Virus record (IMG/VR): IMGVR_UViG_3300034104_004745
Coordinates: 1 to 64,000 of that record
From: a virus
Lineage: Duplodnaviria > Heunggongvirae > Uroviricota > Caudoviricetes
DNA length: 64,000 nt
Reading direction: 5' to 3' (one strand)
The notes under the pieces are model-generated. The model ran no database searches, was not told where the DNA came from, and saw only the letters and a list, made by a program, of their open reading frames with translations. The number at the start of each line of letters is the position of its first letter. Position 1 is the stretch's first letter. This document shows, one piece after another, positions 1,566-51,927 of the stretch. Both the position numbers and the translations under genes were made by a program.

Positions 1566-2357
1566 TTAATTAAATGCGGGTAAATCATCTCCTTCCCAGG
1601 TGGATTCTCCAGATCTTGCCACGAATCCTGCCAACCATTTTGATCCTTCTTCATATCGCTTTACATCTTGATCACTTATATTCAGATAGCCAAGATTATT
1701 CAAGTTCTTCTGTACGCTATATCTAAGTAATTCTGGATTATCACTCATATAGAAATCACAATTAACCTCATAATATTTTCCTTTCTCAGTTAGATATTCA
1801 TATATCTTTGAAACTCTATATCCTTTGGTTTTATATAGATTATACCCTATTACAGAAATTCTGCTACCATCTTCATTATCTACCTTTGATATTAAAAATA
1901 CCACGTTTCTTTTCTTTTCCTTTGTTTCTTTGGATAGTTCAAATTGAGATGAATCTGCTTTTAATGTTACATTGAATCCCAGATTCATTGCATTGATCCT
2001 ATCCATCTCTTCAATGAATCTATAATCATGTCCGGCATTTATATGTTTTTGTAACCAATAGATATGAATCATTTCATGTGCTAATACATTTTTGAAATGT
2101 TTATATGTGATTGCCAAGAATTTGGATATGCTTAGTGATTTAATAACAACTTCACCCGTGCGTCTGAATTTTTGTGCTTTAACTTGTCCGTGGGCTGATC
2201 TTGTCCTATTCCACATCATTTCAATTGGATATAGTTCATTATTAAACAATAGGGCGTTTAATTTATCAAATTCATGCTGAAGATTTATTTCATTAAAATC
2301 CACGATCTCATCATCAGCATATTCCTTAGCCTCATTTATAATATATAATAACTTCAT
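1566..2357 (-). CDS. SprT-like zinc metallopeptidase domain protein (HEMIH motif).
   Basis: LAHEMIHIYW contains HExxH in a SprT-like context. 263 aa. Confidence 0.45.
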   Translation of the reverse strand: MKLLYIINEAKEYADDEIVDFNEINLQHEFDKLNALLFNNELYPIEMMWNRTRSAHGQVKAQKFRRTGEVVIKSLSISKFLAITYKHFKNVLAHEMIHIYWLQKHINAGHDYRFIEEMDRINAMNLGFNVTLKADSSQFELSKETKEKKRNVVFLISKVDNEDGSRISVIGYNLYKTKGYRVSKIYEYLTEKGKYYEVNCDFYMSDNPELLRYSVQKNLNNLGYLNISDQDVKRYEEGSKWLAGFVARSGESTWEGDDLPAFN

Positions 2358-5000: not shown

Positions 5001-5031
5001 AAAGCAAATGTAGACAATATTTTTAATATTC

Positions 5032-5060
5032 CAAAAAAAAACCGGAAAATCATTCCGGTT
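5032..5060 (-). terminator. Rho-independent terminator (AACCGGAAaatcaTTCCGGTT) with T9 on the minus strand, downstream of CDS 5067..6578.
   Basis: Perfect 8-bp stem plus A9 on the plus strand (T9 on minus). Confidence 0.55.
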
Positions 5061-16839: not shown

Positions 16840-18081
16840 TTATTCAGCATCTTTTTCTACTTTATCATCAGACATTGATTCAACACCATCGATAATAAAT
16901 TTAGAACACTTAACAATCACATTTAAATTTACCATAATCTTTTCTTTATTTGCTTTCCATAAAGCTAAGTATGTTGGGTGTTGTGTAACTGGTAATTCAA
17001 AATACTTCATAATAGCATATGATACAGACTCAGCTTGAAGCTCTCTCATCTCTGATGTTTGAGCTGCTGGATCGTCAATGTAGAATGGAGATTTTGTCTT
17101 CCAGTGTAATAATTCGTGAGCAAGCTCGTGAGCAAGTACACTCGCTTCTGCAACACCTTCAACATCAGATGATAAATTAATATGTTCACCAGCACTAAAT
17201 CCTTTTTCCCCACCTTTTGCTGTATCTTTTGTTATTCGTATGTTTAAAGATTCCGCAAACGCTTTTAATCTAGTGGTCAATGCATCAGCAACTTCGCTCT
17301 TTTCATTCTCAGCAAACCATTTAGGTTGTTCTGGTATTTTACCTTCATCATTTAATGGATATGTGTCAGAAATATCATATACCTTACCCATAGAAAATCT
17401 GGTAACAGTTTGACCCTTCTTAACAGCATCGTCAACCTGGCTAAAATCAACACCTGTAGTGTCAACTTCTGCATTTGATTTAACTTGCATTGGGAACCAA
17501 ATCCAAATTGGTGTAGCGCCCTTTACAACCCCTCTATTGGTTTTCTTCCATGTGTTATAACCAGCAACTTTCTTAGCATCTTTCTTTTGTAGATAGATCA
17601 AGAATGAATTGGTTAAACTATAGTTATGGAATCTACTATAGAATGTTAAATAGTTTCTGATAGCAGCATCCATTGCAGCCTGATCTGTAGCATTAGCTAA
17701 GTCGTTAATGTACATATCAAGCTTATCCATGATTAAGTTCTTCTTTGATTGTTCAACATCAGTGTCTTCAATGAAATCCTCAAGCGTTTCTAGATCGTTA
17801 ATGATCTTTCTAAGTTTATTATGACCTTTAATTAAAACATTAATGGCTTCTAACTTATCATAATCACCAACCCAGTGTCCCAGATCTGGTTTCCAATCAA
17901 AGCCTAATTTTCTAAACTCTTTAGATAAACCCATGGTTTCTTTAACCCTGTCTCGCTTATCTTCTTTGTCTGAAAATATAATAATTTTCTTATTGGTATC
18001 GTCTTTTTTAAGGAAAATATCTTCCTTTAAGTTACTTTGTAGCGTTGGCCACTCGGATTCTTTAATTCTAATCTTTTTCAT
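16840..18081 (-). CDS. ArdC-like protein: N-terminal ssDNA-binding ArdC-N (DUF1738) domain plus a C-terminal zincin HExxH metallopeptidase domain.
   Basis: RFHNYSLTNSFLIYLQKKDAKKVAGYNTWKKTNRGVVKG matches the ArdC-N signature. AHELAHELLHW carries HExxH. Confidence 0.55.
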   Translation of the reverse strand: MKKIRIKESEWPTLQSNLKEDIFLKKDDTNKKIIIFSDKEDKRDRVKETMGLSKEFRKLGFDWKPDLGHWVGDYDKLEAINVLIKGHNKLRKIINDLETLEDFIEDTDVEQSKKNLIMDKLDMYINDLANATDQAAMDAAIRNYLTFYSRFHNYSLTNSFLIYLQKKDAKKVAGYNTWKKTNRGVVKGATPIWIWFPMQVKSNAEVDTTGVDFSQVDDAVKKGQTVTRFSMGKVYDISDTYPLNDEGKIPEQPKWFAENEKSEVADALTTRLKAFAESLNIRITKDTAKGGEKGFSAGEHINLSSDVEGVAEASVLAHELAHELLHWKTKSPFYIDDPAAQTSEMRELQAESVSYAIMKYFELPVTQHPTYLALWKANKEKIMVNLNVIVKCSKFIIDGVESMSDDKVEKDAE

Positions 18082-18092
18082 AATATATAAAT

Positions 18093-18117
18093 ATAAAAAA
18101 ACCGGGAAATATCCCGG
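18093..18117 (-). terminator. Rho-independent terminator (CCGGGAaataTCCCGG, then T7 on the minus strand) downstream of CDS 18123..18533.
   Basis: Same AAAAAACCGG hairpin family as the other terminators. Confidence 0.5.
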
Positions 18118-18122
18118 CTATT

Positions 18123-18533
18123 TTACCTATTATCGATAATTTTAATATAATTGTCTTGGAAATCGCTACCAATTTTATTAAGAACTGACTTAGCTTTTAG
18201 TCTAAAATCATCATCATTTTCACAATGATCCTTAAATTTCAGTAACAAATTTCTTATGGTTGTATGGTCCCTATCCTCTAATAATTTACCAATATCGGTT
18301 AGGGTAGCTCTATGTTTTATTTTCAAAGCTGCACACAATATTTTGCGAGCATCAACAATAGTTCTTTTTCTACAATGAGAAATAATTTGTTCTTTGGTAA
18401 CAAAACATTCTTTACATACCACTTCGAAAATTTCTTCTTGATTGACTTGTATGTTTTCGAAATTAACGAAAGGAAACTTTTCTTTTTCCAATAAGGATAT
18501 TTTCAATCCTGGAAAAACATATGGATTCACCAT
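18123..18533 (-). CDS. DnaA domain IV-like DNA-binding protein (136 aa), i.e. the DnaA C-terminal helix-turn-helix domain alone.
   Basis: CRKRTIVDARKILCAALKIKHRATLTDIGKLLEDRDHTTIRNLL aligns with the DnaA C-terminus (..RR.R.V.ARQ.AMYL.KELT..SL.EIG..FGGRDHTTVLHA). Confidence 0.6.
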   Translation of the reverse strand: MVNPYVFPGLKISLLEKEKFPFVNFENIQVNQEEIFEVVCKECFVTKEQIISHCRKRTIVDARKILCAALKIKHRATLTDIGKLLEDRDHTTIRNLLLKFKDHCENDDDFRLKAKSVLNKIGSDFQDNYIKIIDNR

Positions 18534-18587
18534 GTTGAATAATTTTGTAACAAAAATAGTCTAAATTTGTTACAGTGACAAATATTT

Positions 18588-19731: not shown

Positions 19732-20208
19732 TTAATTTTCTTTTGATTTGTCCCATTTAGCTTTTCTTGCTTCTGGCGACAATTGAACATGCTCCTCTAT
19801 TGTATGAGGAATGTTAACCCTAACACATGTTTGTTGTAAACGGCAATTCATTAAATAGTTGTTTATATACCCCATCATGTTGGCGCTACCTATAGGATTT
19901 GCTGAATGTACATAAACTTGAGGAATGGGGATTCCTGTCTCAATACTTTTGTTTACTAACCATTTGCAGCAATCATAACCAGTTTTTTCTTGGATATTAG
20001 AATAATCTAATTGATAGTTGTTTCTAACATTTGTATAATATTCAGTCATCGCCTCATCACCTAAATCATGATCTAAAGATATTGTTTCAATATTCTCTAG
20101 ACCATGATACATAATAGTGCTTACAAACGCTTCGTAATCCCTAACTACAGTCCAACCCTCAACAGTAGGGGTTCTTACGTCATCTAAATAAATGCTTATT
20201 CTTTCCAT
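19732..20208 (-). CDS. Hypothetical protein (158 aa) with SLDHDLG and HSANP motifs.
   Basis: ORF. The motifs suggest an enzyme, but no family was identified. Confidence 0.5.
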   Translation of the reverse strand: MERISIYLDDVRTPTVEGWTVVRDYEAFVSTIMYHGLENIETISLDHDLGDEAMTEYYTNVRNNYQLDYSNIQEKTGYDCCKWLVNKSIETGIPIPQVYVHSANPIGSANMMGYINNYLMNCRLQQTCVRVNIPHTIEEHVQLSPEARKAKWDKSKEN

Positions 20209-27615: not shown

Positions 27616-27978
27616 TTATTTTTTAGTTTTATTGTGTGGTGTTGGGTTTCCGTGTTCGTCTACCGCAACAAATACTATTTTATCAATAACAGTTATTACT
27701 CGATGCGTATCCTTATTTCTAACAATACATTTTATTGTAATCGATGTTGTTCCTAGAGTAATCATTTCACAACCGATCTCAATTATATCCCCTAGCTTGG
27801 CAGATGCAATGAAATCAATTTCACTCATTACTTTTGTTACCACATTAGGTGTCCCCAATTGGCAAATACAATAGATTGCAGCCTCTTCATCGATCCACTT
27901 TAACAGTTGACCGCCAAATAGTGTACCTCTTGGATTTAGGTCTTCTGGTTTAATTAGTTTCCTTGTCCTGAATATCAT
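27616..27978 (-). CDS. Acyl-CoA thioesterase (hotdog fold, YciA/4HBT-like).
   Basis: The pattern NPRGTLFGGQLLKWIDE...VVTKV...GD.IEI...GTTS aligns with YciA-type thioesterases. Confidence 0.65.
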   Translation of the reverse strand: MIFRTRKLIKPEDLNPRGTLFGGQLLKWIDEEAAIYCICQLGTPNVVTKVMSEIDFIASAKLGDIIEIGCEMITLGTTSITIKCIVRNKDTHRVITVIDKIVFVAVDEHGNPTPHNKTKK

Positions 27979-28573
27979 CAGTTAAAAATTTTAAAATCTT
28001 TTCTTTAATTCCACTTTGTTTTATACCCTCAGATCCACGAGGCGTCTCAACAAAATTATCTAATCCCCAATTATGTACAAATTCCACACTATAATCCATA
28101 CCGGTTTTACCCATCCTTAAATCATCAATTGAAACCCAGTGAGTTATTTCCGGATGATCGTGTAGGTATTGTTTAATCTCAATACATCTGGTTTGTTCTA
28201 AGTCCCATTCGCGAGACCATGGAAATCCAGCTTTATAATCTTCAATATACCAGGTGCAATGACCGAGATTTGGTGTAAATGCTATAGGCTTCTTAATGAT
28301 ACCTTGTTGTTCATAATATTCACCCATCTGTTCAACACTAGCCCATCTCTTCCAATCTGAACTAACAACAATCTCAGCACCAGTTTCTTCTAAAATAGAA
28401 TTCAGTACTTTAATAGATTTGTCATCAAAGTCATCAAAACGATATTCCAAAGGAATTTCGTCATTAGTCATGGACAATTTACGTCCACCCCACTTTGCTT
28501 GTTTTTTAAAACGTCCACCCCAATTATTGGATAAACAAATCACACCATCGTGATCAAGAAATATTACTTTCAT
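27950..28573 (-). CDS. HAD-superfamily hydrolase (putative phosphatase or nucleotidase).
   Basis: Motif I FLDHDGV (DxDxV), motif II VVSSD, motif IV SIDD. Confidence 0.5.
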   Translation of the reverse strand: MKVIFLDHDGVICLSNNWGGRFKKQAKWGGRKLSMTNDEIPLEYRFDDFDDKSIKVLNSILEETGAEIVVSSDWKRWASVEQMGEYYEQQGIIKKPIAFTPNLGHCTWYIEDYKAGFPWSREWDLEQTRCIEIKQYLHDHPEITHWVSIDDLRMGKTGMDYSVEFVHNWGLDNFVETPRGSEGIKQSGIKEKILKFLTDDIQDKETN

Positions 28574-34654: not shown

Positions 34655-36568
34655 CTAAAGAAGTCTTAATAGATCATCATAAAGGTTATCTTCTTTCCCT
34701 TCAATTTGTACACCGTTAATGATTAATGGGATCTTTTCTTTTGCTGTTGATTTGATAGAACCTTTAAAAGATAAAATTCTATCTTGTAGGATGACTAATG
34801 CTGAATCAAATCTTTCCGGTGGTTTAGCATTACAGAAATATTTTTCTTGTACACAACCTCTATCACGAGTGTCATATTCACAGGTTACTCTTTCATTACC
34901 GATAGGGCTATCTTCTCTAAGAGATACAATAATTGATTTTTCTTTATCTGCATACGATGCAACACAATGATGCATATGTTCACCCTCTTCAGTGTATTCA
35001 GCGTCAATCTTCAACAACACAGGATAATATATACCAATAATATCATTATTTTCGGTTTTGATTTTTATTGGGTTTTCAATAAGTTTTATTAATCTATCCT
35101 CGAATATGTATTTGATACTATATCCCTTTTTGATCGCTCTATCTAGTTTCGCTAATTCTAAATGTTCTCTATGGAAATCAGCAAGATTAGTTGCTCGCAT
35201 TTCAATATCAGGTAGATGTTTTCTTATTTTAATTAACATGTCTAAATGATCATTGAACGCACTAAATTGTGAACGAACAAGACTGTTACCAATTGTTACA
35301 GTATTCCTCTCACTATAAAGAGAACCATTATTAATTGTTTCGTTGATAAATTCATTTATTAATTTAAGTAAACAACTTTTTTCTGAATCTTTTATATCAT
35401 AAATGTGTTTATTATCTATTGCGTAATAGATGGGGGTATCATCACCAGGTATGTTTTTTTCTTTTTCTATTAACCAATATTCTTCATTTATGTTATGTAT
35501 GTATTTGTGTAAATCTACATAACCAAAATATCTAGCCAATAATATTAATCTACTAATATCTGTTTTAGGGAATTTATGTAACAATCTAATTGTACTCTTT
35601 GATTTAATACCAATTCTATCTAAGATTGCAGCCACTAATTTATTATCATTCTTTTTTAAGAATTTTTTAGTTGGGTAGGCTTCCATTAATAGGCGTCTAT
35701 ATTCATTTGGTACTTTAATTTTGTTAACCGCTATAAATGTTTCCATAACAATCGATAGTATTTTTTTTCTAGCACTTCCTTCGGTATTGGAAATGATATT
35801 AGCGTTATGTGGAAGTTTAGATAAGATGGTATGAAACAATGTTTTCATGAACTCATCATCATTAAAAATATCACTAGCTTCTTTGTTTACTGGGTGATGA
35901 CTTTCGGAATTATCACCAGAAAAGTGAAGAGTAACAGGCCCTACAGTTCTACCAAAAAATGATTGGAGAACTTGTGAAAAATGCTTGAAATTGTTCTGTC
36001 TTATTTTAGGTTTATCAGCACCTTCATAACTGATAATATTCCCAGTTTTAAAGTTTATTTTAAAACCTAATGCGGTTTTGATCTTCCTGAAAAATTTACT
36101 GTTTACTGTTCTTGTTTTTCTATGAGTATAAAACCTTACTGAAATGGTGTCCTCATCAACAGCAATATTTCTTTCATGTATTTCTACAGAAACTGCACTA
36201 AGTGGTCTACCATAGTGTTTTAATAAATGACGTTCTTTAGTGGTATAAAACGTTGGGTTTCTGTGATTCCAATTATCAAAGTTTAGTATTTCACCATCCG
36301 GTTCCTCACTATAAAAATATTTTGTGTTCTTCTTATTAAGTTTCTTTTTATTCGGAACCATCAATTGAAACATACTCTTTAACCTTGCTGAAGGCTTTCT
36401 ACCATCCTCCCTGTTAAAGAAATCAGCATCTAAAAAATCGACGTTTTCTAACCCAAGCTGAAACTTTTTATGGATTTCTTTTTCCTCCTTACTTTTGATA
36501 GAGGTATAATCTTTGTACGGCTCTATTCCATAGAACTGAAACCGCTGAGCTAATACGATTTTTTTCAT
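34655..36568 (-). CDS. PcfJ-like protein (637 aa; EGEHMHHCVASY motif).
   Basis: The C-terminal motif resembles the PcfJ signature. Paralogous to 33206..34603. Confidence 0.55.
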   Translation of the reverse strand: MKKIVLAQRFQFYGIEPYKDYTSIKSKEEKEIHKKFQLGLENVDFLDADFFNREDGRKPSARLKSMFQLMVPNKKKLNKKNTKYFYSEEPDGEILNFDNWNHRNPTFYTTKERHLLKHYGRPLSAVSVEIHERNIAVDEDTISVRFYTHRKTRTVNSKFFRKIKTALGFKINFKTGNIISYEGADKPKIRQNNFKHFSQVLQSFFGRTVGPVTLHFSGDNSESHHPVNKEASDIFNDDEFMKTLFHTILSKLPHNANIISNTEGSARKKILSIVMETFIAVNKIKVPNEYRRLLMEAYPTKKFLKKNDNKLVAAILDRIGIKSKSTIRLLHKFPKTDISRLILLARYFGYVDLHKYIHNINEEYWLIEKEKNIPGDDTPIYYAIDNKHIYDIKDSEKSCLLKLINEFINETINNGSLYSERNTVTIGNSLVRSQFSAFNDHLDMLIKIRKHLPDIEMRATNLADFHREHLELAKLDRAIKKGYSIKYIFEDRLIKLIENPIKIKTENNDIIGIYYPVLLKIDAEYTEEGEHMHHCVASYADKEKSIIVSLREDSPIGNERVTCEYDTRDRGCVQEKYFCNAKPPERFDSALVILQDRILSFKGSIKSTAKEKIPLIINGVQIEGKEDNLYDDLLRLL

Positions 36569-41010: not shown

Positions 41011-42369
41011 ATGAAGAAAAAAATATTATTGTTATCTGATGATTTAAGAATGTCATCGGGTATCGCTACTATGTCGAAAGAGATTGTGATGGGTACCATT
41101 CACAAATATGATTGGGTGCAGCTTGGCGCCGCAATTAAACATCCTGAGTTCGGTAAAATTGTTGACATAAACGATGATATCCGTAAGAGAACAGGTGTTA
41201 AAAACGCTAATTTAAAAATAATCCCTTACAATGGTTATGGTGATATTGGGGTTTTAAGAAAACTAATTAAGGAAGAAAAACCAGACGCTATTCTCCATTT
41301 CACCGACCCACATTATTGGCAGTGGTTATATGACAATGAGCATGAGATTAGACAACAAGTTCCATTATTGTTTTATCACATATGGGATGATTTGCCAGAT
41401 CCATTATATAATAGAAACTATTATGAAAGTTGTGATTGGTTAGGTTGTATATCTAAACAAACATATGGTATTGTTCATAGAGTTGGTAAATTAGAAAATG
41501 GTTCCACATGGAAACCTTTAGAAAATTGGCAGATCAAATATGTACCTCATGGTATTAACCCAGAAACATTTAAACCATTAGATAAAGTTTCAGATGAGAT
41601 AACACAACTTGTACACGGAGATAAGAAGTATGATTTTGTTCTTTTCTATAATAATAGAAATATCAGAAGGAAACAACCATCAGATGTTATCTATTCCTTT
41701 AAATTGTTTTGTGATAAACTACCAAAAGAAAAAGCTGATAAGTGTTTGTTATTAATGCACACAGCAGCTGTAGATGAAAATGGTACAGACTTACCTGCTG
41801 TTATTGAGGCGCTATGCCCATATGATGTTAAATTCACTGGATTAAAGTTAGAGCAAGATAAGTTAAACGAAATCTATAATCTTGTTGATTGTACAATTAA
41901 CATTGCTAATAACGAGGGATTTGGTTTAACTACTGCAGAATCGTTAATGTCTGGCACACCAATCATCGCTAATGTTACAGGTGGCTTACAAGATCAAATG
42001 GGTTTTGATTTCAGTGAAGATGATTATATTACAATTGGTTCATTACACCACAAGGGGAAATCTAGAAGTTTAGTTCAAGAGGGTGAATGGGTTGAAGCAG
42101 TTTGGCCTGCAGCAATTAATCTAAACGGATCTGTACCAACACCATACATTTTTGATGATCGAGTTAATGATGATGATGTTGCTGACGCTATTATGAAATT
42201 ATATAAAAGCGGAAGAAAGAAAAGAAAAGCAAAAGGATTAAAAGGTAGAGAGTTCATGATGAATAACCTATCAAATAAAATAATGTGTGATAAAATGATT
42301 GAGGGTATTGAAGATACACTTAAGAATTGGGAACCTAAAAAAAGATTTGATTTATATAAAATAGTATGA
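41011..42369 (+). CDS. Glycosyltransferase, family 4-like (GT-B fold).
   Basis: C-terminal NNEGFGLTTAESLMSGTPIIA matches the GT4 E-x7-E region. Confidence 0.7.
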   Translation: MKKKILLLSDDLRMSSGIATMSKEIVMGTIHKYDWVQLGAAIKHPEFGKIVDINDDIRKRTGVKNANLKIIPYNGYGDIGVLRKLIKEEKPDAILHFTDPHYWQWLYDNEHEIRQQVPLLFYHIWDDLPDPLYNRNYYESCDWLGCISKQTYGIVHRVGKLENGSTWKPLENWQIKYVPHGINPETFKPLDKVSDEITQLVHGDKKYDFVLFYNNRNIRRKQPSDVIYSFKLFCDKLPKEKADKCLLLMHTAAVDENGTDLPAVIEALCPYDVKFTGLKLEQDKLNEIYNLVDCTINIANNEGFGLTTAESLMSGTPIIANVTGGLQDQMGFDFSEDDYITIGSLHHKGKSRSLVQEGEWVEAVWPAAINLNGSVPTPYIFDDRVNDDDVADAIMKLYKSGRKKRKAKGLKGREFMMNNLSNKIMCDKMIEGIEDTLKNWEPKKRFDLYKIV

Positions 42370-43625
42370 GTAAACCGTTTTTATTATTTAGAGGGCCGGT
42401 ACAAACTAGAAGTGGGTATGGCGCGCATTCAAGAGACCTTTTACAGGCATTGTATGAAATGAATTCATACGATATTAAAATTGATAGTTGTTCTTGGGGG
42501 TCAACACCACTGACAGCATTAGAGAAAGATAATGTTTTTCATAAGTGGATTGAATCAAATATCATTTCATCATTAGCAATACAACCAGATGTGTATGTTC
42601 AAGTAACCGTACCAAACGAATTTCAAAGAGTTGGTAAGATTAACATCGGAATAACTGCTGGAATTGAAACAACTGTCGCACCTAAATCTTGGGTTGATGG
42701 TTGTAATAAAATGGATATGATTATTACTACATCACAATTTTCAAGTGAGGTATTAATGAGTACTGTTTACAATGAGACAGATAATGTTACAGGTAAATTG
42801 ATCAAACAACATAAGATTGAAAAACCTATAAAGGTTCTTTTTGAAGGTGTTCATAATGACATATTCAATAATGAATATAATGATATTGATTTGAATATCA
42901 ATGAAGATTTCGCATACCTTTTTGTTGGCCATTGGTTGAAAGGTAATTTAGGCCAGGACAGAAAAGATGTGGGTATGTTAATTAAATGTTTTGTTGAAGC
43001 ATTTAAAAATGAAGAAGATAAACCAGCATTGATTCTTAAGACTTCATCAGCAACTTTCTCAATAAAACAAAGAGAAGACTTTGCTAAAAAGATAAAAGAG
43101 CTTGTTGGAAACATTGAGAACCCTCCATCGATTTATCTATTGTTTGGTGAATTAACAGATAAAGAAATGAACAATCTTTACAATCACCCTAAAATTAAAG
43201 CAATGATTAGTCTCACCAAAGGTGAGGGATTCGGTAGACCTTTATTAGAATTTACTATGACTGGTAAGCCTGTGATCGCATCTAACTGGTCGGGGCACAA
43301 AGACTTCTTACCAATGGATAAAGGGATTATGATTGGTGGTAAACTAAATGAGGTAGATGAAAGCGCTATTGACGACTTTATTTTAAAGGGTTCAAAATGG
43401 TTTACAGCAAATTATAATGAAGCCGCTGAAGTTATGAAGATTGTGAAGAGCGACTATCAAAAGTTTTTAGATCGTGCTGAAAATCTGAGAATAGAGAATT
43501 CAACTAAGTTTAGTTTTCAGAGAATGATTGAAGAATTTGAAAAGTTATTACCTAAAACAGTTTCACAAGAAGAATCACCAAAACAAAAACCAATTAATTT
43601 ACCTAAATTAAATAAAATAAAATAG
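42366..43625 (+). CDS. Glycosyltransferase, family 4-like (GT-B fold).
   Basis: KGEGFGRPLLEFTMTGKPVIASNWSG GT4 motif. 4-nt overlap with the upstream GT. Confidence 0.7.
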   Translation: MSKPFLLFRGPVQTRSGYGAHSRDLLQALYEMNSYDIKIDSCSWGSTPLTALEKDNVFHKWIESNIISSLAIQPDVYVQVTVPNEFQRVGKINIGITAGIETTVAPKSWVDGCNKMDMIITTSQFSSEVLMSTVYNETDNVTGKLIKQHKIEKPIKVLFEGVHNDIFNNEYNDIDLNINEDFAYLFVGHWLKGNLGQDRKDVGMLIKCFVEAFKNEEDKPALILKTSSATFSIKQREDFAKKIKELVGNIENPPSIYLLFGELTDKEMNNLYNHPKIKAMISLTKGEGFGRPLLEFTMTGKPVIASNWSGHKDFLPMDKGIMIGGKLNEVDESAIDDFILKGSKWFTANYNEAAEVMKIVKSDYQKFLDRAENLRIENSTKFSFQRMIEEFEKLLPKTVSQEESPKQKPINLPKLNKIK

Positions 43626-43626
43626 A

Positions 43627-43923
43627 ATGGCTAAGAGTAAAACAAAAAAACCGTGGGTGGTTGACTCTATGTTTAGATTAGAAGCACCACAAAGTGCTAG
43701 TTTCATAAGCATACCAAATAATGGAACCTTTAAAGATTGTGAATGGTGTTTTCAATTTGATGATAGTGACCCATTTGTATTCGCATCAACAAAACCTTTT
43801 TATGATGGGAAAGACGCTAAAATAAGTTTCACACTTACAAACCAAACAAACACAAATTTGGTCTTTAAAGACTCTAATACCGGCAAAGAATTTAAAATAT
43901 TCGCAAGAGAAAAACAGTTATGA
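43627..43923 (+). CDS. Hypothetical protein (98 aa) within the glycan operon.
   Basis: ORF with tight coupling (1-nt gap upstream, 4-nt overlap downstream). Confidence 0.45.
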   Translation: MAKSKTKKPWVVDSMFRLEAPQSASFISIPNNGTFKDCEWCFQFDDSDPFVFASTKPFYDGKDAKISFTLTNQTNTNLVFKDSNTGKEFKIFAREKQL

Positions 43924-44543
43924 AAATCAGTTTCGCAATCACAGTATGTAATGAATTAGAAGAAATTAAAAAGTTGGTTCCCTTCTTAATAGAAAACAAG
44001 AGAGCCAATGATGAAGTTGTTATTTTATTTGATAGTAAAAATGGTGATGACCAAGTCATAGATTATTTGTTGCAGTTTAATAAATTACCAAATGTACAAA
44101 CCTGGAAAGGATTTGATTTCAATAACGATTTTGCGGAATGGAAAAATAAGTTAAATGAATATTGTACTGGTGATTATATTTTTCAATTAGATGCTGACGA
44201 ATTAATAAATGAGTATATGGTTAAAAATCTACATGAAATTATCGAATCAAATGAAGAGATCGATTTATTCTTTTTACCTAGAATCAATACAGTAAAAGGA
44301 ATAACCGAAGAGCACATAAGAAGATGGAGATGGAATGTGGATGATAATGGCAGAGTTAACTTCCCTGATTACCAGGGTAGAATATATAAATCTAATTTAA
44401 AATGGGGCGGTAAAGTGCATGAAAGAATTGTAGGTGCTAAGTTTTATTCTTTGTTACCAACAGAAGAAATCTATTCGCTATCACACCATAAAACAATTAG
44501 TAGACAAGAAAAACAAAATGATTATTATGAAAACATTAAATGA
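43920..44543 (+). CDS. Glycosyltransferase-like protein (GT-A/GT2-like, DxD motif DADE).
   Basis: N-terminal FAITVCNE and QLDADE resemble GT2. Weakly supported. Confidence 0.4.
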   Translation: MKISFAITVCNELEEIKKLVPFLIENKRANDEVVILFDSKNGDDQVIDYLLQFNKLPNVQTWKGFDFNNDFAEWKNKLNEYCTGDYIFQLDADELINEYMVKNLHEIIESNEEIDLFFLPRINTVKGITEEHIRRWRWNVDDNGRVNFPDYQGRIYKSNLKWGGKVHERIVGAKFYSLLPTEEIYSLSHHKTISRQEKQNDYYENIK

Positions 44544-45069
44544 GATTTATGAAAAGTATCAATCACCGGAAGGTCATGGTGATAAAGGAACAGCACACAC
44601 ATACATAGATGAGTATGAAAGATTGTTAGCCCCATATAGAAAAAACTCAATCGTTCTTGAAATAGGTTTGTGTGAGGGTGAGTCGATGAGAATGTGGGAA
44701 GAATATTTTATCGATTCAAAAGTTATTGGTGTTGATATCGATAGTAGATACTTGATTAGTTTAATTAACGAGCCTGGACATAATATTATTATTGCTGACG
44801 CAACTAAAAATGATATTGTAGATAAGATTGATGAAAAAATGTTTGATGTTTTAATTGATGATGGTAGTCATAGATTAGCTGATCAGTTAAGCACATTTCA
44901 AATTTTTAAAAATCGAATTAAACCTGGTGGTATCTACATTATAGAAGATGTTGTCGAATTAGATCGAGTAAAAAATATCTTCTTAGGACTTCACAATAAC
45001 GTAGAAATTATCGATAATAGACATATAAAAGATAGACACGATGATGTGTTAATAGTATATAAATTTTAA
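44518..45069 (+). CDS. Class I SAM-dependent methyltransferase (Methyltransf_24/CmcI-like sugar O-methyltransferase family).
   Basis: DKGTAHTY...SIVLEIGLCEGESMRMW (motif I), then VIGVDID. The start is re-called to an ATG at 44518 or 44527. Confidence 0.6.
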   Translation: MIIMKTLNEIYEKYQSPEGHGDKGTAHTYIDEYERLLAPYRKNSIVLEIGLCEGESMRMWEEYFIDSKVIGVDIDSRYLISLINEPGHNIIIADATKNDIVDKIDEKMFDVLIDDGSHRLADQLSTFQIFKNRIKPGGIYIIEDVVELDRVKNIFLGLHNNVEIIDNRHIKDRHDDVLIVYKF

Positions 45070-45072
45070 ATT

Positions 45073-46068
45073 ATGAAAGTATTAATTACAGGTATTGCTG
45101 GACTACTAGGTTCCAGATTAGCAGATTACATCGTTGAAAATCATCCGGACGTTCATATAGTTGGTATTGATGATTTGAGTGGTGGGTATTATGAAAACAT
45201 TAACCCTAAGGTTCCGGAATTTAGAAAATTAAATTTAGTTACAGGTGATTTAGAAAGTTGCTTTGAGGAACATAAATTTGATTACGTCTATCATTTTGCA
45301 GCATATGCTGCTGAAGGGTTGTCACCATTTATTAGACAATACAATTATGAGAATAATTTGGTTGCTACAGCTAGAATAATTAACCAGTGTATTAAACACG
45401 AAGTAAAAAGATTAGTTTTTACTTCAACAATGGCGGTATATGGTCATGGTAATGGTAATATATTTGATGAATCTCAAATACCTCAACCGATAGATCCATA
45501 TGGTATTGCGAAATATGCGTGTGAAATGGATATTCAAGTTGCTGGTGAACAGCATGGGTTAGATTGGTGTATCATTCGTCCACATAATGTTTATGGTATT
45601 AAACAAAACATCTGGGATAAATACAGAAATGTGTTAGGTATTTGGATGTATCAACATATGAATGGCGAGCCAATGACAATCTTTGGTGATGGTGAACAAA
45701 AAAGAGCATTCAGTTATATTGATGATTGTTTAGATGGTTTGTGGAAAGCTTCTCAATTGCCACAATGCTCAAAGGAAGTTATTAATCTTGGTGGAACAAA
45801 ACATTACACGATCAATGAAGCTAACGCAGTATTAAAGCAAGTAATCAAAGATGGTGAAACTGTTTATAAAGAACAAAGACACGAAGTTAAAGCTGCCATA
45901 CCAACTTGGGCGAAATCTGTTGAGCTACTTGGTTATGAAGACAAGACATCTTTATATGATGGTTTAAAAACCATGTGGGAGTGGGCACAGAAACAACCTA
46001 ACAGAGAAAGATTTGTATGGGAATCATATGAATTAGATAAAGGAATTTATAGCTTTTGGAAAAAATAA
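45073..46068 (+). CDS. NAD-dependent nucleotide-sugar epimerase/dehydratase (extended SDR).
   Basis: Rossmann GIAGLLGSRL (GxxGxxG) and catalytic YGIAK (YxxxK). Confidence 0.8.
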   Translation: MKVLITGIAGLLGSRLADYIVENHPDVHIVGIDDLSGGYYENINPKVPEFRKLNLVTGDLESCFEEHKFDYVYHFAAYAAEGLSPFIRQYNYENNLVATARIINQCIKHEVKRLVFTSTMAVYGHGNGNIFDESQIPQPIDPYGIAKYACEMDIQVAGEQHGLDWCIIRPHNVYGIKQNIWDKYRNVLGIWMYQHMNGEPMTIFGDGEQKRAFSYIDDCLDGLWKASQLPQCSKEVINLGGTKHYTINEANAVLKQVIKDGETVYKEQRHEVKAAIPTWAKSVELLGYEDKTSLYDGLKTMWEWAQKQPNRERFVWESYELDKGIYSFWKK

Positions 46069-46072
46069 GAAT

Positions 46073-46654
46073 ATGAAAAAAATAGAATTTATTATCCCAA
46101 CGTATAATAGACCAGATAAATTAATGGTTATGTTATCATCAATAAAAGCACAATCTGTTGATTTATGGAAAGTGCATGTTGTTGCTGATGCTGTATATGA
46201 TGGGTATCAAGAAATAAAAGATTACTTTAAAAATGATGAGAGATTTATATTCTCTGAATTAAATGGCCCACACAAAGATTGGGGGCACACAGCTAGAAAC
46301 TATGGCTTAGAAAGAGCAGAAGAAGACTGGGTGGTGATGTCTGGTGACGATAACTATTATGTACCAATTTTCGTTGAGGCTTTTTTAGAATCGATTAAAT
46401 ATAGAAAAGATGTTAACTTTGTTCATTGTAACTTAGTACACAATTGGATTAACAATGAATACATCGGGTTATTATCAAGACCTCAAGTAAATGGTATTGA
46501 TATTGGTAACTTTATGACTAAAACAAAATTTGCGAAACAGATGAGATTAGATGTTACTAAAGTAAACGCTGACGGTATCTTTGTAGAAGAATACCTAGAA
46601 AAATTTAAGGGTAACATTATTCACATTCAAAAAATATTATATGTCCATAACTAA
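46073..46654 (+). CDS. Glycosyltransferase family 2 (GT-A fold).
   Basis: N-terminal EFIIPTYNRPDKL is the canonical GT2 start. SGDDNYY region. Confidence 0.6.
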   Translation: MKKIEFIIPTYNRPDKLMVMLSSIKAQSVDLWKVHVVADAVYDGYQEIKDYFKNDERFIFSELNGPHKDWGHTARNYGLERAEEDWVVMSGDDNYYVPIFVEAFLESIKYRKDVNFVHCNLVHNWINNEYIGLLSRPQVNGIDIGNFMTKTKFAKQMRLDVTKVNADGIFVEEYLEKFKGNIIHIQKILYVHN

Positions 46655-47762
46655 CATAACATTCGTTCTTGCTGTACTTGATAAATTAGATTTAACTAAG
46701 AACTGTTATTCTAGAATACGAGATCTATATCCCACCACACCATTTGTTATAAGTAGTGGTGGTTCAAGTGATGGTACAAAAGAATGGTTGTTAGAAATGT
46801 CCGAGAAAGATGAGAACCTAACAATTTTTCATGATGATGATAGGTTAGCATTTTCAGAAACTTACAACTCAGGAATCAAAATGGTCGATACCGAAAAATT
46901 AGTTTTGATTCACAATGATATGGTTATTGGTGAGGGGTTTTTAGAAGCTATAGAAAGGTTATTAAAACCAAATATGATGTTATCCTATACAACAATAGAA
47001 CCACCAATTTTTAAAGGACATCAAAGACCCGGAAAGGTATTAATTGATTTAGGTTCATCGTTTGATGATTTTGATTATTTTAATTTCAATGCGTATGTTA
47101 GTACACATAACAATAACGATGTTCTATATGATGGCGCAGTTTTCTTTATGAGTGGTTACAAAAAGATGTTTGAAGATGTTGGTTTTTTTGATGGGTTTAG
47201 CTTTGTACCTTGTTTCTGTGAAGATGATGATTTCATAATCAGGGCTAAGTTAAAAGGATATGAATTAAAAACTTGTGAGTCCGCGATCGTATATCATTTT
47301 GTTTCCCAAACGTCTAGATTTAGCGAAGAGTTTAAGAAAAATAGAGTTACCCATGAGGTTTCATCTATTAGAAACTTCGTAAGAAAATGGGGGATAACTA
47401 TAACTGTCTTTAATGAGCTACGCTACTGGGAAGAAAAAGAATTTAAGTATAAAACATTTTCAATGGGATTAATTACAAGAAACAAAAAAAGATTAATGGA
47501 TCTTGAACCGTTTTTTGATAAGATTGATCTGGGTGAAATACCTGAAGAATATATTGAGAATGAGCAAAAAAGAACTAGATACGATATTAGATCTAAATTT
47601 ACATTAACAGATACTGTGGATGTTGTTATAACTGAGGTTGATGAATTTACTGATGAAGATCTACAGACATTACGTAGACTAAGATTATCTATACCATATT
47701 ATGAACCAGGTGAATACCAAATAGGTAATATGTTGATACAAATAAAAAAGGAGCTTAATTAG
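46641..47762 (+). CDS. Glycosyltransferase family 2-like protein (373 aa).
   Basis: FVLAVLDK...YNSGIK...LIHNDMV architecture like GT2. Weaker match than 46073..46654. Confidence 0.45.
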   Translation: MSITNITFVLAVLDKLDLTKNCYSRIRDLYPTTPFVISSGGSSDGTKEWLLEMSEKDENLTIFHDDDRLAFSETYNSGIKMVDTEKLVLIHNDMVIGEGFLEAIERLLKPNMMLSYTTIEPPIFKGHQRPGKVLIDLGSSFDDFDYFNFNAYVSTHNNNDVLYDGAVFFMSGYKKMFEDVGFFDGFSFVPCFCEDDDFIIRAKLKGYELKTCESAIVYHFVSQTSRFSEEFKKNRVTHEVSSIRNFVRKWGITITVFNELRYWEEKEFKYKTFSMGLITRNKKRLMDLEPFFDKIDLGEIPEEYIENEQKRTRYDIRSKFTLTDTVDVVITEVDEFTDEDLQTLRRLRLSIPYYEPGEYQIGNMLIQIKKELN

Positions 47763-50237: not shown

Positions 50238-50903
50238 TTATTTACCAATTAAAAATATACCTAAACCATTCCAAAAATCATCTGGATCTTCACCAGATGT
50301 GAACAGTTGTCTTGAGTGTAAAATGAATAAATTATTTTCCTCAACAAACTTTTCAAACGCACCACTATCCCAGTTCCAATCATCCATTATTATGATTGTT
50401 TCTTTTGATATGATTGGTAGAATGTTTTTTAAAGCAATGTATTGATCATGAAATTTAGTTTCACCATCATAAAAAATAATGTCGGGATTTGGTAGTGTTT
50501 TAAAATCAAACAATTGATAGTCGGTTTTATAAACAGATATCTTATCAACGTCTCCAAATTTTTTTACGTTAGATAAAAATTCTTCTTGTGGTAACACATC
50601 GATATTGTGTTTATAGTAGTTCCCCATTTTTTGACTAACCCCGCGTGGTGTTAGATTGGGTGACATAAAATTATCAATTGCTATTGAGTAGATATCATTA
50701 CCATATATTGCAGAACAAAATGTTGCGCCACGAAAAACACCTATCTCTAGATAGGTTGCACCATCAATGTCACAAATATTATTTAGAAACGATCTAACTT
50801 TATTACTGGTGATTCCATGAATATCCAAAATGTCTTGAGTTAATTTTGATACTTCAAGTTTACCCCATTCAATTGAATCGTCTATATGTTTAACTAAGTC
50901 CAT
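50238..50903 (-). CDS. Class I SAM-dependent methyltransferase (Methyltransf_24/CmcI-like), paralogous in fold to 44518..45069. The start is re-called to the ATG at 50903; the track starts at a GTG.
   Basis: GATYLEIGVFRGATFCSAIYGNDIYSIAIDNF motif I region. Confidence 0.55.
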   Translation of the reverse strand: MDLVKHIDDSIEWGKLEVSKLTQDILDIHGITSNKVRSFLNNICDIDGATYLEIGVFRGATFCSAIYGNDIYSIAIDNFMSPNLTPRGVSQKMGNYYKHNIDVLPQEEFLSNVKKFGDVDKISVYKTDYQLFDFKTLPNPDIIFYDGETKFHDQYIALKNILPIISKETIIIMDDWNWDSGAFEKFVEENNLFILHSRQLFTSGEDPDDFWNGLGIFLIGK

Positions 50904-51927
50904 ATGATTTTTTCTTATGATCTGCAACAATATCACAGTAATTACAATCCCAACATTGGAATTTACATTTCTTTATTTTATTTCTCCAACCCTTAAGTTC
51001 TTCGTGTGGTATACCATCCAAATATATCTCAGATGTTTTAGATAAAACACTTTTACCCGCAGCGTACGAATCAACAATCTCCATAGTTTCATCTAATCGA
51101 TTGAAGCTATCTCTACCATGCATTTTGAATACATCAATATATTCTAAGAATTCGTCAAACTCTTCTTTGAATGGTGGTATAGTTCCTGTCTTAAAAAAGA
51201 AAGCATTAATATCTTTCTCCCATTTGTGTTCACAAGTTACTTTAGAGATCTCGTGATGAAAGTATGGTAACTCATTATTAGTTCTAAGATTGTTATATGA
51301 ATAATGTTCATCCATGACTGGGCACCTTCCTAAACAACCTTCATTAACTAGTAATGATATTTTTACATATCTACCTTTCTCTTCGTAATATTTTAACTGA
51401 GCTCTTTTGATATTTTTTAATTCTTCAACATCTCTCATTAAAATCCTATCAAGATTAATGTAATCAAATCCTTGATCGGCGTTATACCAAAAGTCTTGTC
51501 CAGTTGCCACTTTTCTTAATATGGTATTTTTAATTTCCATCTCTGGAAAATGTTTCTTCAATCCCATTGCAACCCAATGACCATGTGGAATAGTTATACA
51601 TCTTAAACCCTTTTCGTATAAAGGTTTTAGATTATCAATAAACAATTTATAGTTATCGAATCTAGGAGAAACGTTTATGTTGTTGAATGTTGCACTGATG
51701 GAGATACCTAATGCTTTTTGAATGATCATTGCATTATCAAACACAATGTCTCTGTCTTCATCTCTGAACACCGCACCCATCGCATCTTGTGTAAATGGTG
51801 GGACTCTACAGGTAAAATAAATGTCATATATCCATTCCTTATTTCTTTCTAAGAACGGATAAAATTTATTCATGAACATATCTTCCGACATCATCGGATT
51901 AAGTGGTATAGAGAATATCTTTTTCAT
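50890..51927 (-). CDS. Cys-rich protein (345 aa) with a C-terminal CKFQCWDCNYC cluster; possible Fe-S or zinc partner of the adjacent radical SAM enzyme.
   Basis: EGCLGRCP and CKFQCWDCNYCD motifs. 1-nt overlap with the radical SAM gene. No canonical CxxxCxxC. Confidence 0.5.
   Translation of the reverse strand: MKKIFSIPLNPMMSEDMFMNKFYPFLERNKEWIYDIYFTCRVPPFTQDAMGAVFRDEDRDIVFDNAMIIQKALGISISATFNNINVSPRFDNYKLFIDNLKPLYEKGLRCITIPHGHWVAMGLKKHFPEMEIKNTILRKVATGQDFWYNADQGFDYINLDRILMRDVEELKNIKRAQLKYYEEKGRYVKISLLVNEGCLGRCPVMDEHYSYNNLRTNNELPYFHHEISKVTCEHKWEKDINAFFFKTGTIPPFKEEFDEFLEYIDVFKMHGRDSFNRLDETMEIVDSYAAGKSVLSKTSEIYLDGIPHEELKGWRNKIKKCKFQCWDCNYCDIVADHKKKSYGLS

Follow-up and report, generated by a model that had tools for sequence, protein, structure and literature searches.

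A stand-alone DnaA domain IV protein with a conserved N-terminal motif in large phages

Our analysis identifies a phage gene for a protein of 136 amino acids that consists of the DNA-binding domain IV of DnaA behind a linker and a short conserved N-terminal peptide. That this product is a DnaA domain IV protein with a DNA-binding role is close to certain, and we infer that it most likely serves as an early DNA-site-occupying factor at DnaA-box-like sites. The gene lies in the window, i.e. the whole 64-kb stretch of DNA analysed here, which is part of a genome of ~199 kb. It is a real gene, as seen from 17 close homologues (40-96% identity), every one of which is stand-alone, and from the identical protein on 22 contigs from many samples, the longest measuring 198,825 bp. 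The novelty is confined to the subfamily with the N-terminal motif (N-motif); the bare finding of a phage protein with only a DnaA_C domain is already known, and the wide annotation of such genes (PMC8477408) reduces the novelty of the window gene. The features of the locus are the following:

18123-18533, minus strand: coding sequence of the stand-alone DnaA domain IV protein of the N-motif subfamily, 136 aa (open reading frame, PF08299, homologues)
18501-18530, minus strand: VNPYVFPGLK, codons 2-11, the family-defining N-motif (consensus ISPYVFPGLK; conservation, n = 101)
18171-18446, minus strand: DnaA domain IV fold, codons 30-121 (AlphaFold pLDDT 89-94; Foldseek match 1j1v_A)
18345-18377, minus strand: basic loop, codons 53-63 (alignment to 1j1v; R55 corresponds to E. 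coli R399 and R63 to R407)
18249-18272, minus strand: RDHTTIRN, codons 88-95, start of the recognition helix and DnaA signature (aligned to E. coli R432-H439)
18551-18582, minus strand: predicted Bacteroidota sigma-A-type promoter, with -33 TTTG (18579-18582), a 20-nt spacer and the -7 box TATTTTTG (18551-18558) (pattern scan)
18546-18574, no strand: perfect 9-bp inverted repeat TGTAACAAA-N11-TTTGTTACA, putative operator at about -28 to +1 of the promoter (sequence)
18093-18119, minus strand: intrinsic terminator, AGCCGGGATATTTCCCGGTT followed by a T-run, directly 3' of the stop codon (terminator scan)

Domain identity and DNA-reading residues

The product, which begins with MVNPYVFPGLK, matches PF08299 (Bac_DnaA_C) over residues 33-94 (profile positions 2-63 of 69) with 52.5 bits (E = 5.1e-14), above the Pfam gathering cutoff of 31.5 bits. 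Helices are predicted at residues 32-43, 47-51, 57-74, 78-84, 90-106 and 108-120. [quoted passage not shown] The helical domain IV fold with helix-turn-helix (HTH) and basic loop that marks Bac_DnaA_C proteins is thus present, and both the profile score, from a Pfam check that the initial annotation had proposed, and the TM of 0.92 bear out its description of a stand-alone DnaA domain IV-like protein. It had put the homology to DnaA at about 60 residues; the homology is real, but the stretch is longer and comprises about 90-99 residues, because NCBIfam TIGR00362 (DnaA) aligns residues 23-121 to positions 339-437 of 437, the C-terminal end of the model only. The quoted DnaA signature (IGKLLEDRDHTTIRNL) does pair with IGDAFGGRDHTTVLHA of E. 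coli DnaA (PDB 1j1v). The initial annotation had overlooked the N-motif, the dyad in the promoter of the gene and the fact that phages with annotated DnaA_C-only genes are already numerous.

The protein is no full-length initiator. Its TIGR00362 score is 57 bits against a cutoff of 343.9, and since neither this cutoff nor the architecture of DnaA is reached, the “replication initiator DnaA” labels given by automatic pipelines are over-annotations. As had also been proposed, AAA+ and oligomerisation domains are lacking: with a length of only 136 aa and N-terminal 30 residues that match nothing, there is neither an AAA+ domain nor a domain I. The window protein shares with DnaA domain IV (E. coli residues 374-467, 1J1V; M. 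tuberculosis, 3PVP) the fold, PF08299, the R399-type arginine and RDHTT, and it differs from DnaA in being phage-encoded, in lacking domain I, the linker and the AAA+ domain III, and in having the N-terminal decapeptide.

The residues by which DnaA reads DNA are retained throughout the family. In E. coli DnaA, R399 reads the TTA part of the DnaA box in the minor groove, helix 434-451 recognises TnCACA, and box binding is abolished by R399A and by T435M (PMC5742627). Among 118 family sequences, which share only about 25-40% overall identity, the arginines of the basic loop are found in 115 (R55) and in all 118 (R63). D89 of the signature is kept in 106 and H90 in 115; position 91 is T in 94 and S in 13 (107 T/S), and position 92 is T in 93 and S in 23 (116 T/S). 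The basic-loop arginine and the D-H-T-T signature of Bac_DnaA_C are hence both present and 80-100% conserved in the 118 members. Such retention across a divergent family fits a target that is fixed outside the phage, e.g. host DnaA boxes. Isolated domain IV suffices for sequence-specific binding (Roth and Messer 1995, cited in PMC5835720). Judged by its residues, the 136-aa protein would be expected to bind the 9-bp DnaA box TTWTNCACA in a sequence-specific manner.

Three positions deviate from E. coli DnaA (T79 for P423, R94 for L438, N95 for H439); across the family, position 95 is H in 71/118 and N in 32/118. DnaA_C domains whose roles clearly differ also retain DHTT, e.g. those of Y1 transposase fusions, tandem-repeat proteins and pelagiphage proteins (PMC6006769); the motif may be structural and is no proof of DnaA-box specificity.

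The N-motif subfamily and its relatives

The subfamily defined here has the N-motif pattern (I/V)(S/N)PY(V/I)(F/Y)PG(L/I)(K/R), in which P4 is conserved in 100%, Y5 in 99% and G9 in 99% of 101 sequences. The motif is followed by a variable linker of ~20 residues and near-constant length and by the DnaA_C domain, giving 115-150 aa in total; the clade of the window protein has an additional 15-residue C-terminal tail. More than 100 representative clusters match the subfamily profile from position 1 or 2 to ~122, and the window protein shows every defining feature of the subfamily. In AlphaFold models the N-motif is non-helical and of low confidence (pLDDT 55-68), and a deeper alignment left the N-terminus unchanged (pLDDT 67-68, no secondary structure). 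Neither DnaA nor the other phage DnaA_C proteins compared have the motif, and no other open reading frames bearing it were found. Most simply, the N-terminal peptide is a docking motif for some partner.

The family occurs on 50 IMG/VR loci (contigs of 15-335 kb) and is abundant in large phages of freshwater Bacteroidota. A motif-based scan with a tighter alignment found 0 members in 185,579 bacterial and archaeal species genomes, and the family is phage-only. Near-identical DNA was found in none of the deposited phages.

Annotated phage DnaA_C-only proteins include the “DnaA-like” proteins of HTVC010P-type and Skadi pelagiphages (170-177 aa), gp013 of Cellulophaga phage phi19:3 (“DnaA protein”, 131 aa), gp026 of Flavobacterium phage tooticki (112 aa) and many UniProt entries from “uncultured Caudovirales”. 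Like the window protein they are short, with PF08299 as the sole recognisable domain, and a part in the initiation of replication, or in its control, is presumed for them (PMC8477408). A literature search for domain IV that acts in trans, whether phage-encoded or isolated, returned this pelagiphage annotation remark only (PMC8477408). The N-termini of these proteins, in contrast, are unrelated to that of the window protein and lack the PY-x-(F/Y)-PG motif. The Skadi protein is 36% identical over 61 residues, with BLASTP covering residues 33-93 only; all 86 of 86 deposited phage matches start at subfamily consensus position 43 or later and none covers positions 1-42, so that no N-terminal region is shared. 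The genomic settings differ as well. The annotated genes lie in recombination/replication modules of 35-76 kb phages, as in phi19:3, where the 131-aa protein is encoded between RecT and a DnaC-like “DNA replication protein”, and in tooticki, where the 112-aa protein is encoded upstream of a primase. The window gene lies in an auxiliary/anti-defence region of a ~199-kb phage.

Domain IV is also reused as a DNA-binding module in Y1 HUH (TnpA-REP-like) proteins with a C-terminal Bac_DnaA_C (PMC6006769); one example of this type (P0066, 8 repeats) was found in our profile search. These are bacterial multi-domain enzymes, whereas the window protein comes from a phage, has one domain only and differs at its N-terminus.

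Transcription unit, gene neighbourhood and DnaA-box searches

The DnaA_C gene is a self-contained promoter-gene-terminator unit with a host-type promoter. The pattern was taken from the Bacteroidota sigma-A promoter consensus (PMC9723704), and its strict form has 8 matches in the 64-kb window versus 2.3 expected. It places the predicted transcription start near 18546, and the same promoter architecture is kept upstream of the gene in relatives. The terminator folds with -17.9 kcal/mol (z = -4.1) and its hairpin covaries among relatives.

The inverted repeat overlies the -7 box and the predicted transcription start. Its 9-mer occurs as a single exact copy in 64 kb, and within the clade of the window protein the dyad symmetry is maintained through a compensatory A.T to C.G double change, with pairing in 89% of cells versus 36-58% in slid controls. 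In some relatives the half-sites are one-mismatch DnaA boxes (ATATTCACA and GTTTTCACA in L001, TTTGTCACA in L080), a likeness that parallels the autoregulation of dnaA through a DnaA box (PMC5835720). The half-site of the window, TTTGTAACA, fits TTWTNCACA at only 7/9 positions, and DnaA-box-like 9-mers upstream of the gene are not enriched family-wide (9 observed vs 7.9 expected). As firm evidence for a pair of DnaA boxes the dyad was consequently rejected, given a fit of 8/9 in some relatives, of 7/9 in the window, and no enrichment. Nor was a correlation seen between N or H at position 95 and AACA or CACA in the dyad half-sites of relatives. This type of dyad is restricted to the window clade; the other clades carry a different palindrome, TTGGAATATTC. 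The palindrome TTGGAATATTCCAA upstream of the gene in other clades was likewise rejected as a specific operator, since several promoters per 20 kb carry it, which makes it a general promoter-class element.

In the window the DnaA_C gene has auxiliary or anti-defence neighbours, namely a DEDDh exonuclease, cREC_REC, Band_7, an ArdC-like anti-restriction protein, an Acb1-like protein and T5orf172. The window clade retains cREC_REC, a 155-aa gene and an exonuclease upstream of DnaA_C, and other clades retain a 360-aa gene, a 77-aa gene, DnaA_C and a 185-aa gene. A conserved partner gene was rejected, as no neighbour is common to all clades. PADLOC defence models gave 0 matches. No helicase, primase, loader or polymerase was recognised in the scanned open reading frames of the window, and the recurrent neighbour families that were annotated at 54 loci include none either; the window gene is thus not located in a replication/recombination module.

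The search for clusters of DnaA boxes that the initial annotation had suggested covered the 64-kb window of the ~199-kb genome and 63 related loci, and it returned none. Matches to TTATCCACA with at most one mismatch are not enriched in the window (36 vs 28 expected), and TTWTNCACA has 9 matches versus 13 expected. At least three boxes within 300 bp were found neither in the window nor at the 63 related loci, and the densest windows were no better than shuffles, both in the 64 kb and in a complete pelagiphage genome. With counts, cluster scan and shuffle comparison all negative, DnaA-box clusters on the phage DNA examined were rejected; the remainder of the ~199-kb genome could hold one.

Candidate roles

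The window protein is almost certainly a small sequence-specific dsDNA-binding protein, in which the HTH and basic loop of domain IV stand behind the linker and the N-terminal decapeptide. It would be expressed early by the unmodified host RNA polymerase, judging solely by the type of its promoter, and would bind 9-bp DnaA-box-like sites in the manner of DnaA domain IV, R55 entering the minor groove and the helix with D89-H90-T91-T92 the major one. Site occupation would be its mode of action, because ATP binding, oligomerisation, DNA melting and helicase recruitment would not be possible for such a protein. Most likely, it would be a dominant-negative mimic that competes with host DnaA for sites at oriC and at the promoters under DnaA control, and its own promoter would probably be shut off via the dyad over the -7 box and transcription start.

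We put forward competition for host DnaA boxes tentatively, as a possible rather than a probable mechanism. It is favoured by the contact residues retained in a phage-only family, by the gene's own host-type promoter, by neighbours that are auxiliary or anti-defence and not replication genes, and by the lack of a DnaA-box cluster on the phage DNA examined. The substitutions T79, R94 and N95 speak against it, as does the location of the other DnaA_C-only genes of cultured Bacteroidota phages in replication/recombination modules, which points to replication as the role of at least those relatives. Overall, the computational evidence separates only weakly the two roles that the initial annotation had suggested, i.e. 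host-box occupation and a role at a phage origin.

Such an origin role, which we consider unlikely, would make the protein a minimal initiator that binds the phage's own origin while the N-terminal peptide recruits a helicase, loader or primase of the phage or the host. The suggestion has been made for HTVC010P-type pelagiphages, which lack polymerases of their own (PMC8477408), and the placement of the phi19:3 protein between RecT and the DnaC-like protein and of the tooticki version upstream of primase points in the same direction; a peptide on a linker of near-constant length would also suit the recruitment of a partner. The cultured-phage context transfers poorly to the window gene, however, because those proteins have no N-motif and share the DNA-binding domain only. 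Replication genes are missing from the scanned window and from the recurrent neighbours at 54 loci, three-box clusters are missing from the window and the 63 loci, the densest windows reach shuffle level only, and near the gene no repeated candidate site is seen apart from the single dyad of its own promoter.

The dyad itself raises the question of a phage-specific transcription regulator, i.e. a generic HTH protein on operators other than DnaA boxes (e.g. TGTAACAAA-N11-TTTGTTACA) that would repress itself and perhaps other early genes, with the N-terminal peptide serving dimerisation or contact to RNA polymerase. A dyad at -28 to +1 that is unique in 64 kb and covaries fits this picture and implies a dimeric binder, unlike the monomeric DnaA domain IV. 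Autoregulated regulators typically have such a monocistronic layout of promoter, gene and terminator, and Y1 transposase-like proteins employ DnaA_C as a generic HTH (PMC6006769). We nevertheless regard the regulator role as doubtful. Another phage repressor could equally well bind the dyad, the dyad type is limited to the window clade while the TTGGAATATTC palindrome of other clades sits at several promoters, and the strict family-wide retention of DnaA's DNA-reading residues is unexpected if operators co-evolve freely. With no further copies of the dyad in the window, the regulon would be one gene.

A broader proposal than box competition alone holds that the N-motif subfamily is an unrecognised class of host-takeover proteins: an early mimic of the DNA-binding domain of DnaA that would block the boxes of oriC and the dnaA promoter, so as to stop initiation on the chromosome, and would tether or poison a conserved host partner through the N-terminal peptide, e.g. 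the sliding clamp, the replicative helicase, DnaA or RNA polymerase. As a whole this proposal is rather improbable. The small prophage-encoded inhibitors of host replication initiation YfdR of E. coli (PMC4776307) and YqaH of B. subtilis (bioRxiv 10.1101/2020.11.18.388090) offer a functional analogy to the favoured competition for host DnaA boxes. Both bind the DnaA protein and have no homology to DnaA domains; the window protein would instead compete for DNA sites. To our knowledge, no phage DNA-site mimic of DnaA has been demonstrated.

Finally, a functionless, decaying fragment of a captured host dnaA, for which the pipeline label “chromosomal replication initiator protein DnaA” might speak, is effectively refuted by the pattern of conservation, i.e. 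a reading frame of ~115-150 aa intact in >100 clusters at 50% identity, an invariant added N-motif, a conserved promoter and terminator, and the identical protein on 22 contigs.

Little is understood, above all beyond E. coli and Bacillus, of how large lytic phages shut off or exploit the replication of the host chromosome. Our results extend known territory rather than open a new one, as phage DnaA_C-only genes have already been annotated and noted in print. They also highlight that databases mislabel N-motif proteins as “chromosomal replication initiator”. The subfamily is set apart by its invariant N-terminal peptide, which hints at an interaction partner, and the cultured Cellulophaga and Flavobacterium phages, which carry related motif-less versions, provide an experimental starting system. 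A phage copy of the DNA-reading part of DnaA alone is a simple candidate for blocking an origin in a dominant-negative way or for binding one as a minimal module. If the host-takeover proposal were true, no earlier phage inhibitor of replication initiation would be known to compete for the DNA sites instead of binding the DnaA protein.

A stand-alone DnaA domain IV

The window protein is encoded by the following gene:

18123-18533, minus strand: DnaA_C gene, 136 aa, MVNPYVFPGLK...IIDNR

Residues 33-94 match positions 2-63 of the 69-position Bac_DnaA_C profile (Pfam PF08299) with 52.5 bits (E = 5.1e-14), against a gathering threshold of 31.5 bits. Against the NCBIfam equivalog for DnaA, TIGR00362, residues 23-121 align with the final 99 positions (339-437 of 437) at 57 bits. 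This match is confined to the end of the model and lies below the cutoff of 343.9 bits, so the C-terminal domain alone is present. The reading as a full DnaA thus fails on both cutoff and architecture, and the automatic-pipeline label ‘chromosomal replication initiator protein’ is an over-annotation. A phmmer search of PDB sequences pairs the signature IGKLLEDRDHTTIRNL with IGDAFGGRDHTTVLHA of E. coli DnaA domain IV (1j1v). [quoted passage not shown] By score, fold and signature the protein is a PF08299 member with the DnaA domain IV fold. The initial annotation was therefore right about the stand-alone domain IV, its Pfam family and the absence of the AAA+ and oligomerisation domains; its similarity to the DnaA C-terminus also holds, but over about 90-99 residues instead of the claimed 60 or so.

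ATP binding, oligomerisation, unwinding and helicase recruitment by DnaA depend on domains I-III. The window protein is without these domains, so it is incapable of these activities in the DnaA manner. The remaining domain aligns with the E. coli protein as follows.

Aligned residues of the window protein and E. coli DnaA (1j1v alignment)
R55: R399
R63: R407
T79: P423
D89: D433
H90: H434
T91: T435
T92: T436
R94: L438
N95: H439

Fujikawa and colleagues are said to have described, in 2003, individual base contacts by D433, H434, T436 and H439. The DnaA helix 434-451 reads the TnCACA part of the box in the major groove, R399 reads TTA from the minor groove, and both R399A and T435M abolish box binding (review PMC5742627). 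Sequence-specific binding of DnaA is attributed to domain IV alone (Roth and Messer 1995, as cited in PMC5835720).

A phage-restricted subfamily with an N-terminal motif

A word-indexed search returned 17 close relatives (40-96% identity, 132-161 aa), each with PF08299 only. Searching 1.84 billion cluster representatives exhaustively with a profile yielded 516 matches below 1e-10. Among the best 150 of these, nearly all are 110-150 aa long and most span profile position 1 or 2 to about 122; the homology therefore includes the N-terminal 30 residues, which are foreign to DnaA. Across two alignments, with 60 and 101 diverse members, overall identity to the window protein is 25-40%. The top-conserved columns fall into two groups, the DNA-contact set (R55, R63, I81-G82 and R88-T92) and an N-terminal decapeptide (consensus ISPYVFPGLK; hereafter N-motif) with P4 conserved at 100% and Y5 and G9 at 99% each. 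The DNA-reading residues of the domain IV fold are thus conserved over deep divergence, with the other DnaA domains absent. A linker of some 19 residues separates the two groups, poorly conserved in sequence and near-constant in length (motif-to-DHTT distance: mode 79 residues, range 65-86). Two AlphaFold runs gave the N-terminal 30 residues a pLDDT of 55-68 and no secondary structure, and no other ORF of the window or the fetched loci carries the N-motif. The peptide may serve for docking, as an arm that contacts DNA, as a strand for dimerisation or as a degron.

Outside the window, the profile search also returned tandem DnaA_C proteins (P0041, P0066, P0070, P0085, P0094, P0097, P0125 and P0128), many of them with two repeats in 210-290 aa. 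One has 673 aa and five matched stretches, and another, of 1680 aa, joins a Y1 HUH transposase-like N-terminus to eight.

The N-motif pattern was found at 50 loci on IMG/VR viral contigs of 15-335 kb, several above 200 kb, and a similar scan of bacteria and archaea (one genome per species, 185,579 species) contained no member of the subfamily, which by this test is phage-restricted and not prophage-borne. A protein identical to that of the window is encoded on 22 contigs, which come from many metagenomes; the longest has 198,825 bp and implies a phage genome of about 200 kb. None of 50,697 deposited phage records is a near DNA match to the window.

Phage stand-alone DnaA domain IV proteins as such are already known at annotation level and common in databases. 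Foldseek matches in BFVD include dozens of ‘Chromosomal replication initiator, DnaA C-terminal’ entries from uncultured phages as well as Cellulophaga phi19:1, Nonlabens P12024L, Tenacibaculum Gundel_1 and a crAss-like virus. With tblastn, 86 deposited phage records match the family consensus (21 Flavobacterium, 18 Pelagibacter and 6 Cellulophaga phage records among them), and a PF08299-only gene occurs in most HTVC010P-type pelagiphages (Du et al. 2021, PMC8477408). The N-motif is absent from these deposited proteins: all 86 matches start at consensus position 43 or later, and four phage DnaA_C-only N-termini inspected are unrelated to that of the window protein. Our literature search found no experimental study on any phage DnaA_C-only protein. 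The prophage initiation inhibitors YfdR and YqaH differ in that their target is the DnaA protein, and their sequences are unrelated.

A freshwater bacterium of the phylum Bacteroidota is very probably the host, as indicated by the promoters and an epimerase. G+C of the window is 32%, and its promoters have the Bacteroidota form (TTTG, 19-21 nt, then TAnnTTTG), TAnnTTTG being the flavobacterial sigma-A -7 box located at -12 to -5 (PMC9723704). The host-like epimerase is 57-71% identical to homologues almost all from Bacteroidota (Roseivirga, Sediminibacterium, Chitinophagaceae, Cytophagales), many of them from lake MAGs. Two regions are relevant here, the first of them with this epimerase:

41011-47762, plus strand: glycosyltransferase and nucleotide-sugar epimerase island, on the opposite strand and with reversed GC skew
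50890-51927, minus strand: 345 aa, full-length identity of 45-47% with hypothetical proteins from the T4-like cyanophages P-RSM1, Syn19 and S-RIM14 (phrog_1458), a link unexpected for a Bacteroidota phage

Promoter, dyad and gene neighbourhood

The DnaA_C gene is flanked by these elements:

18579-18582, minus strand: TTTG (-33 element), upstream of the ATG
18551-18558, minus strand: -7 box TATTTTTG, 20-nt spacer from TTTG
18546-18574, about -28 to +1, within the promoter: perfect inverted repeat TGTAACAAA-N11-TTTGTTACA (the dyad)
18093-18119, minus strand: intrinsic terminator AGCCGGGATATTTCCCGGTT then T-run, directly 3' of the stop codon

Transcription is predicted to start near 18546, with a leader of about 13 nt. 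The terminator is strong (-17.9 kcal/mol, z = -4.1) and its hairpin covaries among relatives. With its own promoter and terminator the gene forms a promoter-gene-terminator unit whose promoter is of host type, from which we infer early expression by unmodified host RNA polymerase.

The dyad is kept in ten distinct sequences of the clade (89% of cells paired versus 36-58% in slid controls), including a double change at one position, A.T in four sequences and C.G in four. It sits upstream of the transcription start, which argues for a putative DNA operator rather than an RNA hairpin; its exact 9-mer has no second copy in the 64 kb. In some relatives the half-sites are one-mismatch DnaA boxes (ATATTCACA and GTTTTCACA in L001, TTTGTCACA in L080). 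The bacterial dnaA gene is autoregulated via a DnaA box (PMC5835720), and the promoter dyad may parallel this. The likeness is suggestive, since the window half-site TTTGTAACA matches the box at 7/9 positions and DnaA-box-like 9-mers are not enriched in 29 non-redundant upstream regions (9 observed versus 7.9 expected from shuffles).

In other clades the palindrome TTGGAATATTCCAA lies upstream of the DnaA_C gene; it recurs at several promoters per 20 kb and was rejected as a gene-specific operator in favour of a general promoter element. In loci L010-L051 (for example in L024 at 7495, 9939 and 12866) and at window 5005-5035, the -33 TTTG is overlapped by a palindrome, TTGGAATATTC(N)AA. It too appears at several promoters in each 20 kb of related phages, and resembles a shared operator or a promoter-class signature of the phages.

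All neighbours of the DnaA_C gene lie on the same strand. Upstream are a Band_7 protein, cREC_REC, a 155-aa protein without known function and a DEDDh/RNase_T exonuclease; downstream are an ArdC-N/M78-like anti-restriction protein and a T5orf172/MUG113 protein. The remaining window holds Acb1-like, HAD_SAK_2, Metallophos, SprT-like, Pyr_excise, thymidylate synthase and PcfJ-like proteins, M23 and NlpC/P60 peptidases and the glycosyltransferase island. Individual features are:

1566-2357, minus strand: SprT-like metalloprotease, 263 aa
12686-13225, minus strand: 179 aa, weak 2'-5' RNA ligase superfamily and Acb1 (anti-CBASS) matches; may be a cyclic-nucleotide-degrading anti-defence protein
16840-18081, minus strand: ArdC N-terminal domain and M78/IrrE-like metallopeptidase region, 413 aa (phrog_7245, anti-restriction), adjoining the DnaA_C terminator downstream
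19732-20208, minus strand: cREC_REC (cyclic-phosphate processing receiver), E = 9e-24
27950-28573, minus strand: HAD_SAK_2 (‘Swiss Army Knife’ RNA repair HAD domain), E = 4e-19
34655-36568, minus strand: PcfJ-like, 637 aa
37922-39109, minus strand: thymidylate synthase, 395 aa, residues 26-394 matched to a 266-position profile

The RNA-repair-type domains (cREC_REC, HAD_SAK_2) are dispersed through the auxiliary region. The PcfJ-like, SprT-like and ArdC-like families are more familiar in conjugative elements than in phages, and an HNH endonuclease replaces the ArdC-like gene at the same position in some relatives. The thymidylate synthase is some 100-130 residues above the usual length and may contain an insertion.

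Across 54 loci local gene order is conserved within clades and there is no universal partner gene. The window clade keeps the block of cREC_REC, 155-aa gene and exonuclease upstream of DnaA_C; divergent clades (L013-L051) share a core of a 360-aa protein (phrog_17056), a 77-aa protein, DnaA_C and a 185-aa protein without family match, the whole core being without assigned function. The window ORFs scanned include no recognisable helicase, primase, loader or polymerase, and the recurrent neighbour families annotated at the 54 loci no recognisable replication gene. The gene, phage-only in distribution and equipped with a host-type promoter and terminator, sits in an auxiliary and anti-defence setting.

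Competitor, origin binder or regulator

The initial annotation proposed occupation of host DnaA boxes or recognition of the phage's own origin, candidate functions that are plausible. We infer an early, monomeric protein that would act by occupying DNA sites, recognising DnaA-box-like 9-mers. The single likeliest reading, held tentatively, is that it would act as a dominant-negative competitor of host DnaA, both at oriC and at promoters under DnaA control, and would probably repress itself via the promoter dyad. The strongest argument is the constancy of the DNA-reading surface in a protein that otherwise drifts, as would be expected of a host-set target; against this, DHTT is also kept in DnaA_C domains with other roles (PMC6006769).

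A phage origin binder or minimal initiator, as suggested for pelagiphages (PMC8477408), is a less likely rival. It is supported by the setting of motif-less relatives, near a DnaC-like loader in Cellulophaga phi19:3 and with a primase downstream in Flavobacterium phage tooticki. The DnaA-box clusters that the initial annotation proposed to look for did not appear in the window or related loci. TTATCCACA, allowed up to one mismatch, matches the window 36 times (28 expected) and TTWTNCACA 9 times (13 expected), neither enriched nor clustered; no cluster of at least three boxes within 300 bp exists in the window or 63 loci, and even the densest stretches of 300 bp do not surpass shuffles, which also holds in a complete pelagiphage genome with a DnaA_C-only gene. 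These results speak against canonical DnaA boxes as the make-up of a phage origin, the window being about one third of the roughly 200-kb genome. A phage-specific transcription regulator using the domain as a generic HTH we regard as about as likely as the origin binder.

Beyond the known annotation, the novelty lies in the N-motif subfamily: it is large and restricted to phages, has an invariant peptide at the N-terminus as its defining feature, is found away from replication modules in large phages of Bacteroidota and, in the window clade, is accompanied by a covarying putative operator in the gene's own promoter.
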